IMG/VR virus record: IMGVR_UViG_3300037692_000137
Coordinates: 170,229 to 234,228 of that record
Length of the DNA: 64,000 nt
Reading direction: 5' to 3' (one strand)
From: a virus
Taxonomy: Duplodnaviria; Caudoviricetes
In this document: positions 2,187 through 36,390 of the stretch, piece by piece
Numbering within the stretch: position 1 is the first letter of the stretch
How the letters are laid out: each line of letters starts with the position of its first letter
Notes under the pieces: generated by a model
Database searches by the model: none
What the model was told of the DNA's origin: nothing
Seen by the model: only the letters and a program-made list of their open reading frames with translations
Position numbers and translations under genes: made by a program

Positions 2187-3149
2187 TTAAAATAAAGTGC
2201 TTATAGATACACCAGCACTATAGTTAGAATCTTTATCTAAATAAACTGTTGGGCCAATAAATAAGTTTTCCATTAGAGGTAATAGTTTTCCTATATTATA
2301 TTTAACTGGGGTAAAGTACATCAACTCAGTATCTGATGCTTTTGCGGCGCCGAATGCTATAAACTGCCAGTCGCTGTCCGCCCTTGTCTTACCGTAACTG
2401 AATATACCTAAGTCTAAACCTACAGCAGTATCTGTACCAAATATACCAGAAAAGCCTATTCTTGGGCTATACCAAAACTTCTTTTCTTTCTCGACCCTTT
2501 TAGCCCAGTTGTCTATTGTTAGGTCTATTGGAAACTTTTTATATGTACCATCCTCATTTTTACCTAATGATGACCAATGGTTTTCTACCCATGCCTCAGC
2601 GTACCTTTTAGGGTTACCATCGTCATCTGTTGTTTCTACTATGTCAGTTTTTACTTCAAGTTTGTGTGGCTCTACCGACCAACGTTCTGCACCTTGTATG
2701 TTTGGGCTTAGCCTTACTACTGCTACAGGATATGGACTGCCTTCTGCGTCATTTAAGTTAACCGTTACTTCTTCTAAATCCCTTTTAGGGTTTTCAGGAT
2801 CTTTATATGTGGTTGCTTTTGATAGCCAGTCAACTTTTCCTGAAAGTGTAGCAGTAACTTTACCTATCTCATCGACACGCTCGTTGTTAGCCTTTATAGT
2901 TTTTAGCAACACACTATTTTGGGCCGCTAGTTGTTCTGTTAGTTTTTTGATATCAGCATTATTAGCTGCCACTGTAGCTACGGCAGCGTTAGTAGCTATG
3001 TTTTCTATTGTGGTAATATCCACAGGGTTCTTGTCGTCGCGCCCGGTAAAATTACTTACCATTTTAGGTATTTCCATAAATAGAAATACTACCAGAGCTA
3101 TTAATGCCAGCGACTTAGTTATGTCAAATATACTTGAATCTAATTTCAT
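2187..3149 (-). CDS. N-terminally membrane-anchored coiled-coil protein (spanin-like candidate)
   Basis: Hydrophobic segment SLALIALVVFLF followed by coiled coil; overlaps the stop of the holin-like gene. Confidence 0.45.
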   Translation of the reverse strand: MKLDSSIFDITKSLALIALVVFLFMEIPKMVSNFTGRDDKNPVDITTIENIATNAAVATVAANNADIKKLTEQLAAQNSVLLKTIKANNERVDEIGKVTATLSGKVDWLSKATTYKDPENPKRDLEEVTVNLNDAEGSPYPVAVVRLSPNIQGAERWSVEPHKLEVKTDIVETTDDDGNPKRYAEAWVENHWSSLGKNEDGTYKKFPIDLTIDNWAKRVEKEKKFWYSPRIGFSGIFGTDTAVGLDLGIFSYGKTRADSDWQFIAFGAAKASDTELMYFTPVKYNIGKLLPLMENLFIGPTVYLDKDSNYSAGVSISTLF

Positions 3150-10143: not shown

Positions 10144-10407
10144 CATATATATTCGAGTAAGATCGTTAAACTTACCCCGTCTATAATTTCTAGACAGCTG
10201 CATGTTTCCATACAGATTAGACTATATCACCAACCAATCTGGTTGCTACGCGCTTCCACTCACTTGAGTGTACTTCCTTTCGGAATAGTCGTTGCAGGTT
10301 CCTCATTAATAGAGGCTTCCCTCAGGATTGTCCTCGACTTGACGTTAGGATATTCCCTGAATTCACGTAGTTTTTCAAATCACATTACTGTAAAAAGCCG
10401 CCTATGG
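10144..10407 (-). ncRNA. Group I self-splicing intron (IA2-like, 264 nt, no homing endonuclease)
   Basis: P1 CCGU/GCGG with U.G at the 5' splice site; P2 with GUAA loop; P3 CUACGUG/CGCGUAG; P4 UCAGG/CCUGA; R CCUGCAACGACUA; S GAUAUAGUC (P7 GACUA/UAGUC); P7.1 UUCC-GAAA-GGAA; P7.2 CACUC/GAGUG; P8 CAACCA/UGGUUG; P9 UGUAUG-GAAA-CAUGCA; terminal G; removal restores an in-frame Csp. Confidence 0.93.
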
Positions 10408-10455
10408 ACGGTCGTTAGAAAACCATTTTACAACACCATTAATTCTTTCTTCCAT
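10408..10455 (-). CDS. csp: Cold-shock protein, exon 1 (MEERINGVVKWFSNDR)
   Basis: AAAGGAG SD; G-VVKWF Csp N-terminal motif; joins in frame to exon 2 (71 aa product). Confidence 0.9.
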
Positions 10456-10513: not shown

Positions 10514-10957
10514 TTAACTTAGAAACAATGCTTTCTCTGATTCTCTCCTATTTACTAAACCTTGAGATACTTTACCGTTAGCTTTTCGCCACTGCCAAAA
10601 ATTATTAGCCACACCAGTATAGTCTCCAACATTAAGCCTTCTCAGTACGGTTGATTTAGCAAAGTTAGCTAAACCTATGTTGTAAGCCAGGCTGGTTAAA
10701 GCGTTAAACTGATTCTGTGTAACTTTAATTTTTACCAGCTCATTTACACTTTCAGAAAAGTCTCCGGCAGTGAACGTGAGTAATTCAGTAGCGCGTTCTT
10801 TTGTTATAGGAGGGTCACTTAGGCGTACCTTTGTGCCGTCCTCATAATAAGTAGAACCAAAACCTATTGTAGGTATACCCGATGGGCATAAGTAAGGCTT
10901 AGAACTAAAACCCTCAAACCTCTTTATTAAGTCTACTCCAGCTATATCTATTTTCAT
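10514..10957 (-). CDS. Endolysin, GH24 lysozyme
   Basis: FEGFSSKPYLCPSGIPTIGFGST catalytic E-x8-C-x5-T; QNQFNALTSLAYNIG; GLVNRRESE. Confidence 0.92.
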   Translation of the reverse strand: MKIDIAGVDLIKRFEGFSSKPYLCPSGIPTIGFGSTYYEDGTKVRLSDPPITKERATELLTFTAGDFSESVNELVKIKVTQNQFNALTSLAYNIGLANFAKSTVLRRLNVGDYTGVANNFWQWRKANGKVSQGLVNRRESEKALFLS

Positions 10958-30342: not shown

Positions 30343-30410
30343 TGTCGAAACCCCGCTATGAGGGGGCCTGTTAGGACTGGACCCCCTAATACTGATGATG
30401 ATAGACCAAC
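30343..30410 (+). ncRNA. Type II hammerhead ribozyme, degenerate copy (U16.1 to C)
   Basis: UGUC-GAAA-CCCC/GGGG-C-C-UGUUAGG/CCUAAUA-CUGAUGA-U-GAUA. Confidence 0.65.
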
Positions 30411-31719: not shown

Positions 31720-32007
31720 ATGAAGATAAACAACGCATTAAAAAGACTCATTGAAGAGGCCTTATCAGAGGCTAAGGCGGCCTCTACTGAGTACGTTGTA
31801 GTAAGATGCTTGTTCAGGCACGCTCTTTGTCGCAAAACACGCCTTTCTAAGGGCCAGGCTACATGGGTATGGCACAACATAGTATACGTTGACCCTAAGC
31901 ATGTATGTGGCAGGGAGCAGCGTGGTGAAATAAGTAGGTCTGACCAATGCGGGTTCAGATGTATCTCGCCTTTAGGCAACTGTCCTGACTTTAAACTTTC
32001 GCTCTAA
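31720..32007 (+). CDS. Early hypothetical protein (95 aa)
   Basis: AAGGAG SD. Confidence 0.55.
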   Translation: MKINNALKRLIEEALSEAKAASTEYVVVRCLFRHALCRKTRLSKGQATWVWHNIVYVDPKHVCGREQRGEISRSDQCGFRCISPLGNCPDFKLSL

Positions 32008-32019
32008 GGAGACATCACC

Positions 32020-32271
32020 ATGACTGCTAATACTGTCACTACTACCAATGAACATCCGCCGTTTGTAACCACTGGCAGCGGTGTTGGCCCATCATTTGTA
32101 ACCACCTATGAATGTATCATAGGATGGAAAGCTGTTTTGATTACTTGGGACGCTGAGTTTGGTTATATTCCAGATACTACTGCCTACTTCGCTCATCCAA
32201 CTGAAGACGTTGCTATCGAGGATGCTAAGCAGTGGGCGGAAGCCGAAGGAATTGAGTACCGTCCGCGCTAA
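32020..32271 (+). CDS. Early hypothetical protein (83 aa)
   Basis: AAGGAG SD. Confidence 0.6.
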   Translation: MTANTVTTTNEHPPFVTTGSGVGPSFVTTYECIIGWKAVLITWDAEFGYIPDTTAYFAHPTEDVAIEDAKQWAEAEGIEYRPR

Positions 32272-32310
32272 ATAGTTTATTTATCTCTAACCTTTTTCAG
32301 GAGAATTACC

Positions 32311-33072
32311 ATGAAATCTATTAAATCAATCGCAGTAGTAGCAATCATTGTTCTTTCACTCGTAGCCTGTAAACAAGAGGCTATGGTTAGTGCTCCTCAG
32401 CCCGCGGTAGTAGTTGGTAACGTATACACCACTGATGTTCTGCGTTATGAGGGCGACATTGTTAATAACATGCCCAATGGTAAGGGTGTTATCACCTTCA
32501 TCTGGGGTGATACTTATGCCGGAGATGTTGTCAACGCACTACCTAATGGCGGAGGTGTTATGCGTTATGTGGATGGCAGTATCTACCGCGGGCAGTGGAA
32601 GGACGGCCTGCGTGACGGGCATGGCAGGTTTGACTCATCTGATGGCAGCCGGTATAATGGTTCCTGGGTAGCAGGGAGTAAGCATGGCCAGGGAACACTT
32701 ACAGTGGATGGCCTTAGCCAGACGGGTACCTTTGAGAAAGACCAGCCCAAACGTGTTGTGGTTTTGGATACTAATACCTGTATCGAAGGTAACTGTCGCA
32801 CAGGCTATGGTATTAAACGCACAGCAGACGGTGTTTACTCTGGTGACTTCGAAAACGGTGACTTCCATGGACAAGGCACATTTAAGTATAGCAATGGTGA
32901 TACCTACAAGGGCAGCTTTCTCAAGGGACACATGTTTGGTGCTGGAAGGCTTACCAGCCCCAATAACCATTGTGTAACCATGGGTATCTGGGAAAGAGGT
33001 AAATGGGTTGAGGGTAACAGACGTTACGATGACGGTACACCTGAGTACATTCTTATGAGACACATTCTGTAA
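32311..33072 (+). CDS. MORN-repeat lipoprotein
   Basis: Signal peptide with lipobox LVA-C; repeated YxGxWxDGxRxGxG motifs. Confidence 0.85.
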   Translation: MKSIKSIAVVAIIVLSLVACKQEAMVSAPQPAVVVGNVYTTDVLRYEGDIVNNMPNGKGVITFIWGDTYAGDVVNALPNGGGVMRYVDGSIYRGQWKDGLRDGHGRFDSSDGSRYNGSWVAGSKHGQGTLTVDGLSQTGTFEKDQPKRVVVLDTNTCIEGNCRTGYGIKRTADGVYSGDFENGDFHGQGTFKYSNGDTYKGSFLKGHMFGAGRLTSPNNHCVTMGIWERGKWVEGNRRYDDGTPEYILMRHIL

Positions 33073-33083
33073 TTGTCGCTTCT

Positions 33084-33113
33084 CTCTGCTTATCTCCCGT
33101 TAGGTAAGCAGGG
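33084..33113 (+). other. Conserved hairpin, copy 1
   Basis: CTCTGCTTATC-8 nt-GGTAAGCAGGG just after a stop codon; related to 36398-36427. Confidence 0.6.
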
Positions 33114-33162
33114 GTTAGGAGACAAGAACAATAATAACCCTATCATGAAAAGGAGAAATATC

Positions 33163-33360
33163 ATGACCGCACAATTACGTTGGTTCGAGCGCATTCATCA
33201 GGCCGTTGTTGTTACACAAGATAAAGTGTGTAAATATCAAATTCACAATATGGAGGAGTTGGAAGTAGCCATTAAAGTATTAGAAAGTATGTTCAGTACT
33301 AGTGCTAAGCTGGTTAGTTCTAAGAAGCCAGATGTGTTCATATTTAACTTCAACAAATAA
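33163..33360 (+). CDS. Early hypothetical protein (65 aa; start re-called)
   Basis: AAGGAG SD. Confidence 0.55.
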   Translation: MTAQLRWFERIHQAVVVTQDKVCKYQIHNMEELEVAIKVLESMFSTSAKLVSSKKPDVFIFNFNK

Positions 33361-33434
33361 AAGGAGACACACGCCATGTCATTACGTTCAATTGTATGTA
33401 CGTGTCGCCGCACCCAGACAAGCCACACTTTCTT

Positions 33435-33502
33435 GTCGATTGGGCGACTATAAATAGGCATTAGGCCCAAAGCGCCCCTATCTATACCAGGTAGGGGGTT
33501 GC
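33435..33502 (+). ncRNA. Pistol ribozyme (predicted cleavage G33498/U33499)
   Basis: P1 GUCG/CGAC, loop AUUGGG pseudoknotting with CCCAA; UAUAAAUAG; P2 GCA/UGC; UUAGGCCCAAAGCG; P3 CCCCUAUCU/AGGUAGGGG; G-U cleavage dinucleotide. Confidence 0.88.
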
Positions 33503-33541
33503 TCTCTGTGTTAGTTTATTAACTTTATATAAGGAGATTGT

Positions 33542-33826
33542 ATGTCATATATCACACTTATTCATTGGACTATGCGCATATTTAAGAGTTCTTCTGTTCT
33601 TACTGTGCATGAAAAACAGATTATTTATGAAGTGCCTTTTTCCGGTTTATATGACGCTAAGTACATGCGTTATTTATTAATAAATAGGCTTATTCCAAAA
33701 GGAGAGTTAAGCGAATTAGATAAGTACATAAAAGAGGTACTTGTAGATGAATGGGATAAAGCATTAACAATAAGGGTGTGTGTTATTATACGCTATAACG
33801 CTGTCATAGGAGGTAGTCATGCCTAA
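33542..33826 (+). CDS. Early hypothetical protein (94 aa)
   Basis: AAGGAG SD. Confidence 0.55.
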   Translation: MSYITLIHWTMRIFKSSSVLTVHEKQIIYEVPFSGLYDAKYMRYLLINRLIPKGELSELDKYIKEVLVDEWDKALTIRVCVIIRYNAVIGGSHA

Positions 33827-34007
33827 ACAAAAAGGAGACACGTTGGTGCTTTATCAAAACATGTCAGACGGTCATTGGGTTAGGGGGTACTGCCTTTCGC
33901 CCGCATGTGCATGTAGTAACTACAGGAAAACACATTGTGACAATGGAACATGTCGTTTCTATAAAGAAGAGTTTATTTCTATTAAACAGAAAGGGGGTAG
34001 CTCATGA
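33819..34007 (+). CDS. Cys-rich early protein (62 aa)
   Basis: AGGAGG SD. Confidence 0.5.
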   Translation: MPKQKGDTLVLYQNMSDGHWVRGYCLSPACACSNYRKTHCDNGTCRFYKEEFISIKQKGGSS

Positions 34008-34172
34008 CTATAAGCACAGTAGCAAGGTGCTCTGTATGTAAACAATTAAAGAGATATTTCTATTTCTCTTTATCTGAGCAGGCTAAACTAAAACCAGCCG
34101 TGTGTAATGACTGTTTTGACTCAGTCAATGTACCTTTATTCACAATTATTGGCGTTGGGGGGGGGTAATATT

Positions 34173-34379
34173 ATGAGCACGTTCTTTATCACGATGGGTG
34201 TTGCTGCAGATGGGGGCTTTCAGCCGGTAAAAGCTGTAAAGCTGCCTAATAGCCGGATAGCTGTAGTAAACAGGAGCCCAATTACTACGCACTGTCCAGA
34301 GTTAGCAGAGGAGATAGCAGAGGCTTGGGCAAAAGAGGAAGGCTTAATCTACAACAAGAAGGAGAATGACTATGTTTAA
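34173..34379 (+). CDS. Early hypothetical protein (68 aa; start re-called)
   Basis: ATG preceded by a G9 tract that could serve as SD. Confidence 0.5.
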   Translation: MSTFFITMGVAADGGFQPVKAVKLPNSRIAVVNRSPITTHCPELAEEIAEAWAKEEGLIYNKKENDYV

Positions 34380-34602
34380 ACTCGACTCTCAGAACATACT
34401 TATTGGTGCTGTTATTGTAACAATTATCTGGTTCTTCAATTACATATTGGGTTCCATGCTGATTATTATAGCAGCAAGTGTTATCGGGTTGTTTATGTTT
34501 AACTGGCTTGGTAGTATATTCCGTAAGGATACAACAAAGCCCAAAGATAAGGCAAAAGACCCAACAGACTTGTCAGGGGCATTTAAGGAGACTAAACCAT
34601 GA
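34366..34602 (+). CDS. Small membrane protein (78 aa)
   Basis: Two hydrophobic segments; AAGGAG SD. Confidence 0.6.
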   Translation: MTMFKLDSQNILIGAVIVTIIWFFNYILGSMLIIIAASVIGLFMFNWLGSIFRKDTTKPKDKAKDPTDLSGAFKETKP

Positions 34603-34861
34603 AGATAGTAAAGGTAGTTTGCTCGTGGTGTATTGCTGAGGGGTTTCCTGTGACCCCTTTACATGAAATAGAGGTGCCTGATGATGTTGAAGGAGATTCA
34701 CACGGTATCTGCGAGTACCACGCCTCAGAGTTGGAAGAGATGCTGACGTTATACATGGAGTATGATGAGGAGTAAAGATATCAAACTTAATTACAAAGGA
34801 GACAGCAAAAATGTTCACATAACCTAAGGGAGGTGGTGCCTATGAGATAAGCGTTAGGGTT

Positions 34862-34940
34862 TAACGTGAAGGGCAAACCCGGAGCAATCCGGGGACGCAA
34901 AGCTATGGGCCCTCATTGTGAGGGCAGCCAGGTTACCAAA
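34862..34940 (+). ncRNA. c-di-GMP-I (GEMM-I) riboswitch
   Basis: AAG-GGCAAACC-CGGA-GCAA-UCCG-GGGACGCAAAGC-UAUGG-GCCCUCA/UGAGGGC-AGCCAG-GUUACC; GNRA loop; G at the position equivalent to G20. Confidence 0.9.
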
Positions 34941-34965
34941 CAAACCGAATTACAGGAGAATTACC

Positions 34966-35934
34966 ATGAAGAAATCAATCGTTATTTCCGCAATCGTTTC
35001 TCTTATTTCTATTATGTCTACCTCATCAGCACAGGGTGAACTCATTGATGGTCGTTTTACTGTTCTGGATACCACTACCAATTACGAATGGCAGAAACAC
35101 CCCTTCGTGTATACCAATTGGTATGACGGTAAGGACCAATGTGAAGACCTCGTTATGGATGGGCATGATGATTGGGTTATGCCTATGCCCGGCCATTTGA
35201 GAACAATCAAGGGCGTTATCCAGTACCTGGCATACAACTACATGTACTACCACACAATCAAAGAGTATTCAGCTACGGCGGACTACTCATACAACATTGA
35301 TACTGGTGTTGTTGGTGTTGTATCCAAATACAATCTTGGCAACGTTCGTTGTATGCGGGATGCTTCGGCTGATATGGCTGAGGTTATTACCAGCGTAACT
35401 ATCCAGAAAACCGGATATTACACGATGGCCACTTCCATTGCCAACGTAACTGGCATGGTATCAGCATTTGTTGATGGTGTTCTGGTGGCTTCTTACAATA
35501 CCGACTATATCAACACACCTGTTGGTATTGGCAATCTTACCGCCGGCCAGAATCTGGAAGTTACGGTCAATGGCGACAAGGCCGAGGGCATCAACGAAAT
35601 CGATTGGCAGAGTTGGGATATGACCTTTTCTGCCGGTGACATCGAAATCTATGTCGAAGACCCTCCGGTACCCAACAATTGTGTTGCCGCTGAGCCTACT
35701 GAAGAACTGCCCCCGCCGGTGATTGTTGAGGTGGGTATTACCAAGGCGCAAGTACTCAACAGTAAGAACAAGAGTACTTTAACGTTGGTATTGAACGTCC
35801 CTGAACAGATTACTATGGGAGACGGCCCCGCAGACTTCACGTTCTTCGTTTACAAGAATGGTTCAGATGTTGCGTATGTAGGTTCCACCGTAATGACACA
35901 CAAGGGGAATGGTAACATCATTTCCAATAAGTAG
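34966..35934 (+). CDS. Secreted DUF1566 (Lcl C-terminal-like) domain protein (322 aa; start re-called)
   Basis: CAGGAG SD; signal peptide; TVLDTTTNYEWQK...NWYDGKDQCEDL...GHDDWVMP...VRCMRD. Confidence 0.75.
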   Translation: MKKSIVISAIVSLISIMSTSSAQGELIDGRFTVLDTTTNYEWQKHPFVYTNWYDGKDQCEDLVMDGHDDWVMPMPGHLRTIKGVIQYLAYNYMYYHTIKEYSATADYSYNIDTGVVGVVSKYNLGNVRCMRDASADMAEVITSVTIQKTGYYTMATSIANVTGMVSAFVDGVLVASYNTDYINTPVGIGNLTAGQNLEVTVNGDKAEGINEIDWQSWDMTFSAGDIEIYVEDPPVPNNCVAAEPTEELPPPVIVEVGITKAQVLNSKNKSTLTLVLNVPEQITMGDGPADFTFFVYKNGSDVAYVGSTVMTHKGNGNIISNK

Positions 35935-35988
35935 TCTAACCAAAGGGGCGCCCTATCTGGGCGTCCCTACACCCAATGAGGTAATATT

Positions 35989-36390
35989 ATGACAGGGCAC
36001 TATAAACGTGGCATATACCACACAAATCAAGGCTTTGTTCACGTATATGCTCTCGAAAGTAAATGGTTGTATAAACGCGTATCCTTATCCTGTTTTACTG
36101 ATGTTGTAGAAGAAATGAATCAAGACACGTGGGATACTTGTGATGAAGTTAACGACTTGAACATATTAGCCAGATTTACACGCCCGGCTGATATTAGTGA
36201 CACATTCAGGATATGTGATGGAGCATCTACTTGCTTAAAGAACTGTTCAGCCAAGAAAGTACCTAATTCTGCTACGTGGATATCTACAGCAGTTTTAAAT
36301 AATCCTTCCGCCTGTATTCACTCAGACCACATAGATGGGGAAGAGCACGATTGTACGTACACAACTGTTTATGCCAAGTTAAAGCGTTAA
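35989..36390 (+). CDS. Early hypothetical protein (133 aa)
   Basis: GAGG SD; N-terminus resembles 38160..38405 (G.Y.G..G...V...E.KW.Y++V). Confidence 0.55.
   Translation: MTGHYKRGIYHTNQGFVHVYALESKWLYKRVSLSCFTDVVEEMNQDTWDTCDEVNDLNILARFTRPADISDTFRICDGASTCLKNCSAKKVPNSATWISTAVLNNPSACIHSDHIDGEEHDCTYTTVYAKLKR

Follow-up and report, generated by a model that had tools for sequence, protein, structure and literature searches.

Judged by its sequence, the 70-nt element at positions 33434-33503 (+ strand) is a member of the pistol class of self-cleaving ribozymes, a novel copy of a familiar class in a familiar kind of context. It lies in the window, the 64,000-nt stretch of DNA analysed here, which belongs to an uncultured jumbo phage from a sediment metagenome (an IMG/VR record of 234 kb, 234,228 bases, about 89% complete). 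Class membership, conservation and placement together predict that the element is a functional self-cleaving ribozyme, and the best explanation of the locus, to which we give a probability of about 80%, is that the pistol constitutively cleaves a multi-gene transcript.

Scanning the whole window with Rfam 15 (cmscan), we obtained a match to RF02679 (Pistol) at 33434-33503 with 65.3 bits, against a gathering score of 34.5. The match spans model positions 1-68 of 68, is not truncated and has an E-value of 1.3e-09 (64-kb window, 4227 families); a search of the whole 234-kb record with this model gave exactly one match (E 1.1e-12 per genome), and 14 control genomes gave none. A core pattern with 22 specified bases occurs once in the window, even when two mismatches are allowed, and in none of 100 dinucleotide-preserving shuffles. 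An initial annotation of this DNA had placed a pistol at 33435-33502, which is the RF02679 element less one base at each end, and had named a search with the pistol covariance model as the check; that search returned the full-length match of 65.3 bits, and the covariance model and three relatives agree with the assignment. The annotation had also listed all pistol elements in order, each of which is found in the Rfam alignment.

Pistol ribozymes have three stems, about 10 highly conserved nucleotides and a pseudoknot that joins the loop of P1 to the P2-P3 junction (Harris et al. 2015, PMC4604425). Aligned to the Rfam model, the P1 hairpin of the window (33434-33449) has four Watson-Crick pairs, 33435-33438 with 33445-33448 (G33435-C33448, U33436-A33447, C33437-G33446 and G33438-C33445). 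Its outermost position, U33434/U33449, is unpaired; in the three related contigs described below (L038, L039 and L040) it is paired as U-A or U.G. The 6-nt P1 loop AUUGGG (33439-33444) forms the 5' strand of the pseudoknot, with 33466-33471 as its partner: UUGGG (33440-33444) pairs with CCCAA (33466-33470) through three G-C and two U-A pairs. The sixth position is A33439/A33471 in the window and A-U in L038, L039 and L040. In a set of 30 distinct pistol cores, in which the window, L038 and L039 were added to 27 cores of IMG/VR viral contigs, seven have A/A at this position, and the other five positions covary; because it recurs in this way, A/A is, by comparison of sequences, a natural variant and not a lesion. 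A 7-nt linker, AUAAAUA (33450-33456), joins P1 to P2, matches the Rfam consensus exactly and brings two stop codons into this region, UAA at 33451-33453 and UAG at 33455-33457. The 5' strand of P2, GGCA (33457-33460), pairs with UGCU (33500-33503), all four positions being paired in all four homologues (G.U, G-C or G.U, C-G and A-U). P3 (33475-33497) is a hairpin of 9 bp, 33475-33483 with 33489-33497, closed by the 5-nt loop AUACC; every cell of this stem is paired over the four homologues, with C-G/U.G changes at two pairs. In a simple stem search, six other IMG/VR loci (L012, L024, L027, L032, L036 and L010) carried apparent P3 insertions of 50-110 nt. A fold of the 70-mer restricted to nested pairs recovered the pseudoknot helix and P3 (z = -1.67), a value that is uninformative for a pseudoknotted RNA. 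The upper-case positions of the Rfam consensus, a proxy for the 10 published conserved nucleotides, were all matched except four: U7 with A37 is a compensatory change, C42 keeps its pair and A6 is the A/A position.

The catalytic internal loop (33461-33474) consists of UUAGG (33461-33465) and GCG (33472-33474) and encloses the 3' strand of the pseudoknot together with A33471. Purine-32, the G33-C41 pair, G40 (the general base) and G42 make up the active site of the env25 pistol, in which the cut falls at G53-U54 (PMC6154101). We mapped Rfam-aligned positions onto the residue roles given in that review: G33464 corresponds to purine-32, G33465-C33473 to G33-C41, G33472 to G40 and G33474 to G42, so that all catalytic identities are present at the mapped positions; the loop also has A33463. 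The purine-32 position is G in the window and A in L040, both of which are active states (PMC6154101). The predicted scissile bond, G|U at 33498-33499, lies in the 2-nt P3-P2 junction (the ',,' positions of the Rfam alignment), exactly where the initial annotation had put it; this junction is strictly two nucleotides across the class (PMC4604425). The scissile dinucleotide is G-U, the usual one of the class, in the window and A-U in L038 and L040.

Positions 1-28,219 of the window carry terminase, tail and other genes on the - strand. Beyond about 30,000 follows a + strand array of mostly small ORFs without functional assignment, divergent from the terminase and tail genes, and the AT-rich gap at 29.2-30.0 kb contains many promoter-like sites. 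The divergence of a small-gene array from the - strand terminase and tail genes makes it plausible that the pistol lies in the early region of the phage. The local order runs from the gene for a 253-aa MORN-repeat protein (32311-33072) through a 65-aa gene (33163-33360, +), conserved in L039 and L040 and with 78% nucleotide identity to L040, and a 25-codon ORF to the pistol; this is followed by a 43-nt leader (33499-33541, +), which would belong to the 3' cleavage product and has a Shine-Dalgarno sequence AAGGAG at 33531-33536, and by a 94-aa gene (33542-33826, +) whose homologues follow pistols in the relatives. The initial annotation rightly set the pistol just upstream of the gene at 33542, the ATG being 43 nt past the scissile bond. 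The database copy of the 94-aa protein begins at residue 11 (ATG 33572), but the longer form, starting at 33542, is supported by the AAGGAG at 33531-33536 and by the 93-aa length of the L038 homologue. Searches of Pfam, PHROGs and the ESM Atlas gave no functional assignment for the 94-aa, 65-aa and neighbouring small proteins. DNA contigs from the source sample are identical over the whole stretch, and a second sample contributed two 151-nt pieces away from the pistol.

Megablast of positions 32000-36000 against 50,697 deposited phage genomes found no close DNA match, a search for IMG/VR relatives with the 94-aa and MORN-repeat proteins confirmed none, and the exact pattern of this pistol subtype had no match in JGI metagenome contigs. 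A search with the 94-aa protein returned two homologues (74% and 59% identity), which follow pistols in L038 and L039, and L040, a 15-kb Logan contig, was recovered by a search with the relatives' ~100-aa upstream gene. These three metagenomic contigs have a homologous pistol (L038 265-334, 66.1 bits; L039 508-576, 66.4 bits; L040 2854-2922, 64.7 bits) at the corresponding syntenic position, followed after 42-47 nt by the counterpart of the 94-aa gene, and the distance from cut to start stays within 42-47 nt across window and relatives. The gene order of L040 (hammerhead, MORN gene, 66-aa gene, 100-aa gene, pistol, 90-aa gene, riboswitch, Lcl_C-like gene) is common to it and the window over 12.9 kb. 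Between these two, identity is 86% in the pistol, 67-78% in the flanking genes and 60% in the leader; the excess in the pistol indicates, at the level of sequence, that purifying selection acts on the RNA itself. Standard pairs fill 98% of the base-pair cells of the four pistol copies, the only unpaired cells being U33434/U33449 and A33439/A33471 of the window, and every other stem substitution preserves pairing. The substitutions (G-C to G.U type in P1, P2, P3 and the pseudoknot, A/G at purine-32, and G-U versus A-U at the scissile site) are, by comparison with class sequences, all allowed. No double compensatory changes occur among the four homologues, because the copies are too similar, as they are for covariation statistics.

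The clearest difference between the window and its relatives lies just upstream of the ribozyme. In L038, L039 and L040, an ORF of ~100 aa extends into the pistol and has the UAG of the AAAUAG linker as its stop codon, so that P1 also codes for the C-terminal Cys-Arg-Leu-Gly-Asp of the protein. Compared with these homologues (L039:229-531; L040:2575-2877), the window lacks ~230 nt, most of the gene (alignments A1 and A3). It retains the Shine-Dalgarno and ATG of the ~100-aa gene at their ancestral spacing, plus the last ~55 nt. The remnant ATG is one base out of frame relative to the old C-terminus, giving a 25-codon ORF (33376-33453, +) with a strong Shine-Dalgarno, AAAGGAGA at 33360-33367, that ends at the linker UAA. 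L039 and L040 contain an imperfect direct repeat with the core ACTACTATGA at the start of the gene and again ~35 nt before P1, and recombination between such repeats, to go by their position, could have given rise to the deletion. Despite the loss of most of the upstream gene, the window has an intact pistol. Retention of the ribozyme after the deletion and the constant 42-47 nt to the next gene argue that selection acts on the ribozyme and its relation to the downstream gene or transcript, not on the particular upstream gene.

We then considered the placement of pistols in general, in 34 distinct loci made up of 30 IMG/VR contigs chosen by the core pattern, the three relatives and the window; in this set the pattern fixes the conserved bases, some contigs are related, ORFs are called mechanically and phage genes are tightly packed. 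A same-strand ORF of at least 50 aa ended at the first P1 base or inside the pistol in 22 of the 34 loci and 1-15 nt before P1 in another nine, leaving three in which it ended farther away; an upstream ORF end thus lay inside the pistol or at most 15 nt before it in 31/34. The next ORF could start, at the earliest, a median of 44 nt beyond the cut, with values up to about 400 nt, and the upstream gap was smaller than the downstream one in 23 of the 28 loci where both could be measured. Deposited annotations of two isolated phages show the same closeness: Psychrobacillus phage Perkons has a 63.1-bit pistol into which the upstream CDS reaches by 10 nt, and in Gordonia phage GMA7 a gap of 7 nt separates the end of the upstream CDS from a 44.1-bit pistol.

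According to the mechanism that we propose, the small + strand genes beyond the divergent region (~29-30 kb) would be transcribed as a multi-gene RNA, in which the 70-nt element would fold into P1, a pseudoknot of 5-6 bp, P2 and P3. Co-transcription of the pistol with the upstream genes is suggested by their arrangement: gene spacing is tight, and no terminator-like site was found between the upstream genes and the pistol. G33472, the equivalent of env25 G40, would activate the 2'-OH of G33498 for attack on the adjacent phosphate, cutting between G33498 and U33499. Pistols cleave by a 2'-O attack, with a 2',3'-cyclic phosphate left on the upstream product and a 5'-OH on the downstream one (Harris et al. 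2015, PMC4604425); the rate is about 10 per minute or more at physiological Mg2+ (PMC4604425). The claim of the initial annotation that cleavage leaves a 5'-OH transcript accords, by analogy, with this established chemistry (PMC4604425). Of the 70 ribozyme nucleotides, 65 would stay on the upstream RNA, whose 3' end would be compact and pseudoknotted and would bear a 2',3'-cyclic phosphate; the downstream RNA would start with 5'-OH-UUGCU, 43 nt ahead of the start codon of the 94-aa gene. The cut would physically uncouple the two parts of the message, and their decay and translation could differ. Published proposals for bacterial and phage ribozymes, still unproven, include the processing of polycistronic phage RNA and a difference in stability or translation between the two products (PMC3088659, PMC6765202); in this phage, activity in vivo and any effect on stability are predictions from the sequence. 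The separation of two genes, as a purpose, fits the relatives better than the window phage, because the cistron immediately upstream is here a 25-codon remnant.

The initial annotation suggested that the 5'-OH may stabilise the downstream message, which is possible in a host with 5'-monophosphate-sensing decay but is not a general effect. RNase J1 of Bacillus subtilis degrades the glmS ribozyme product that carries a 5'-OH. A stability effect could equally be attributed to the upstream fragment, since all but 5 nt of the ribozyme stay upstream and pistols abut the upstream stop. Taken further, the same placement leads to a broader proposal, which we consider unlikely: pistols would be 3'-end modules of the upstream cistron, with terminating ribosomes gating their folding and with the folded ribozyme and its cyclic phosphate capping the upstream mRNA, and here the module would have outlived its deleted gene by means of the 25-codon mini-ORF. 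If true, this reading would make the pistol a translation-coupled RNA-processing switch.

Two structural candidates for a regulatory role were also considered. The fold of the leader left after cleavage (z = +0.34) revealed no conserved masking of the Shine-Dalgarno, and the idea that cleavage unmasks the ribosome-binding site was dropped for want of a conserved masking structure in the leader folds. In the minimum-free-energy fold of a 216-nt context, GUCGCC (33402-33407) pairs with GGCGAC (33443-33448), which spans parts of the P1 loop and 3' strand, and the modelled fold makes GUCGCC a possible competitor of P1 and the pseudoknot. As a conserved switch this pairing was rejected, relatives being without it.

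The evidence given above bears on four other accounts of the locus. A terminating ribosome might unwind P1 and the pseudoknot, both of which are required for activity (PMC4604425), so that the RNA is cut only when the upstream ORF is untranslated, tying message processing to translation status. Such gating would explain why each of the four homologues has a stop codon within its pistol (UAG of the linker in the relatives, UAA here), why the stop falls at the first P1 base or inside the pistol in 22 of the 34 loci, and why the 25-codon remnant retains a strong Shine-Dalgarno and an ATG at the ancestral spacing. However, the conserved AUAAAUAG linker holds a stop for two of the three reading frames regardless of biology, so the embedded stops perhaps reflect just the tight packing of phage genes; moreover, nine loci of the 34 have 1-15 nt between the stop and P1 and three have a longer distance, and a pistol that cleaves at ~10 per minute or more is quick enough to act between ribosome passages (PMC4604425). 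We therefore hold this account to be improbable. The loss of the upstream gene also admits a decaying relic, of pistol descent and without a useful cleavage rate, left behind when the gene it served was deleted. The upstream gene is indeed only a remnant, and the sole two unpaired stem positions among the four homologues belong to the window copy, where, from the sequence, they could reduce the cleavage rate. Yet the catalytic nucleotides, the junction length, P2, P3 and five pseudoknot pairs are intact, the score is on par with those of the relatives (65.3 versus 64.7-66.4 bits), the A/A variant is common among viral pistols, and the window copy matches the class consensus at places where the relatives deviate, such as the linker AUAAAUA, all of which makes a relic quite improbable.

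More distant from the data are a circular or spliced RNA and a chance resemblance. For the former, the 5'-OH end left by a hammerhead and the 2',3'-cyclic phosphate left by the pistol, at either end of the intervening segment, would be ligated. A type II hammerhead-like site does lie upstream on the same strand (30343-30410), with a clear homologue in L040, and 5'-OH and 2',3'-cyclic phosphate ends are compatible with RtcB-type ligation. On the other hand, searches for RtcB and AAA_33-type kinase genes found neither in the phage record, whose sole RNA-ligase-domain gene encodes a PF09414 protein (94.5 bits; G000:C1:8318-8782 (+), on L050), and this ligase family requires 5'-P and 3'-OH ends. 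Spliced or circular products of the clustered phage hammerheads were sought, and none were detected (Perreault et al., PMC3088659). Circularization is thus a highly improbable outcome. As for a chance resemblance to the pistol consensus, the motif is short, and nothing further speaks for it; against it stand an E-value of 1.3e-09 in the window, clean controls, a single occurrence of the core pattern in the window and none in the 100 shuffles, and conservation at the same site in three syntenic relatives, which together reduce its probability to a negligible one. Constitutive cleavage of a multi-gene transcript is the reading that we retain.

Other RNA elements accompany the pistol. At gathering score, the scan of the whole 234-kb record returned no other self-cleaving ribozyme; beyond the pistol, it found tRNAs, two group I introns and a c-di-GMP-I riboswitch. 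The introns, matching RF00028 with 86 and 83.5 bits, lie at 10198-10417 (-) of the window and at about G000:C1 71842-72064 of the record (L044:12442-12664, -). The type II hammerhead-like site (30343-30410, +) falls short of its gathering score (30.7 against 37 bits), and its L040 homologue (593-661) reaches 48.1 bits and begins one base past the stop of the preceding gene (320-592). The c-di-GMP-I-GGC riboswitch aptamer (34863-34941, +), 1.4 kb downstream from the pistol, scores 66.3 bits where the cut-off is 59 and has a homologue in L040 (4987-5065, 65.3 bits). In the first hairpin stem of the aptamer, window and L040 differ by paired changes, of the type CCCGGAG/CUCCGGG versus CUUGUCG/GGCAAGG. 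Contigs from both sediment samples pile up on the aptamer core (summed depths of 833 and 582), implying that many other organisms in the sediment carry similar aptamers. A further observation concerns another IMG/VR contig (L002, IMGVR_UViG_3300030333_006551), where 81 nt at 10544-10624 (-) match the ends of the tmRNA model with 63.6 bits, its 308 interior positions being replaced by 13 nt. This element, 2.7 kb from another viral pistol, is by its sequence a mini tRNA-like or tmRNA-like element.

The pistol class is said to go back to Weinberg et al. 2015, alongside Rfam RF02679. With the class as defined by RF02679 and by env25 (5K7C, PMC6154101), the window copy shares the architecture, the order of elements, the linker AUAAAUA and the 2-nt G-U junction, as well as the catalytic nucleotides (the equivalents of purine-32, G33, G40, C41 and G42); its score is almost twice the family cut-off, and its neighbourhood of phage genes is typical. 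The differences are minor, namely U/U at the outer P1 position and A/A instead of U-A at the sixth pseudoknot position. The class has been described mainly from Firmicutes and their phages, whereas this copy belongs to an uncultured sediment phage of 234 kb. Among isolated phages, the nearest copy is that of Psychrobacillus phage Perkons (MT325768.1, about 3064-3136, 63.1 bits), with 88% identity over the 5' 40 nt and, as in the window, a next CDS ~40 nt past the predicted cleavage site. Unrelated flanking genes, another P3 and a Firmicute host show that this is not a homologous locus.

The clustered hammerheads of phages and prophages (Perreault et al. 2011, PMC3088659) likewise sit between small co-directional phage genes and have been proposed to cut long transcripts into gene-length mRNAs (PMC3088659), and both the window phage and L040 also have upstream same-strand type II hammerhead or hammerhead-like sites. 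They differ from the pistol in ribozyme class and in the placement of the cut, the pistol remaining nearly whole on the upstream fragment. As punctuation of a presumed operon, the window offers one pistol above the cut-off and one hammerhead-like site below it (30.7 versus 37 bits). In synthetic RiboJ-type insulators, placed in 5' leaders, cleavage strips off the RNA that precedes them, and the ribosome-binding site is left with a defined leader that starts with a 5'-OH. These parts are engineered and hammerhead-derived, so their likeness to the pistol here is one of analogy.

A pistol at this kind of site is otherwise an expected find, and the current view of the class is unchanged by it. The range of pistols is extended to a 234-kb sediment phage that carries a hammerhead-like site and a c-di-GMP riboswitch in the same array, and what the locus adds is a ribozyme that has outlived its upstream gene, together with a quantified placement of pistols abutting stop codons. 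To our knowledge, no pistol ribozyme has a demonstrated biological role. The four copies form a natural comparison in which three overlap the end of the ~100-aa gene and the fourth, that of the window, is without that gene and has kept the ribozyme, making the locus a clean natural setting in which the role of a pistol can be tested.
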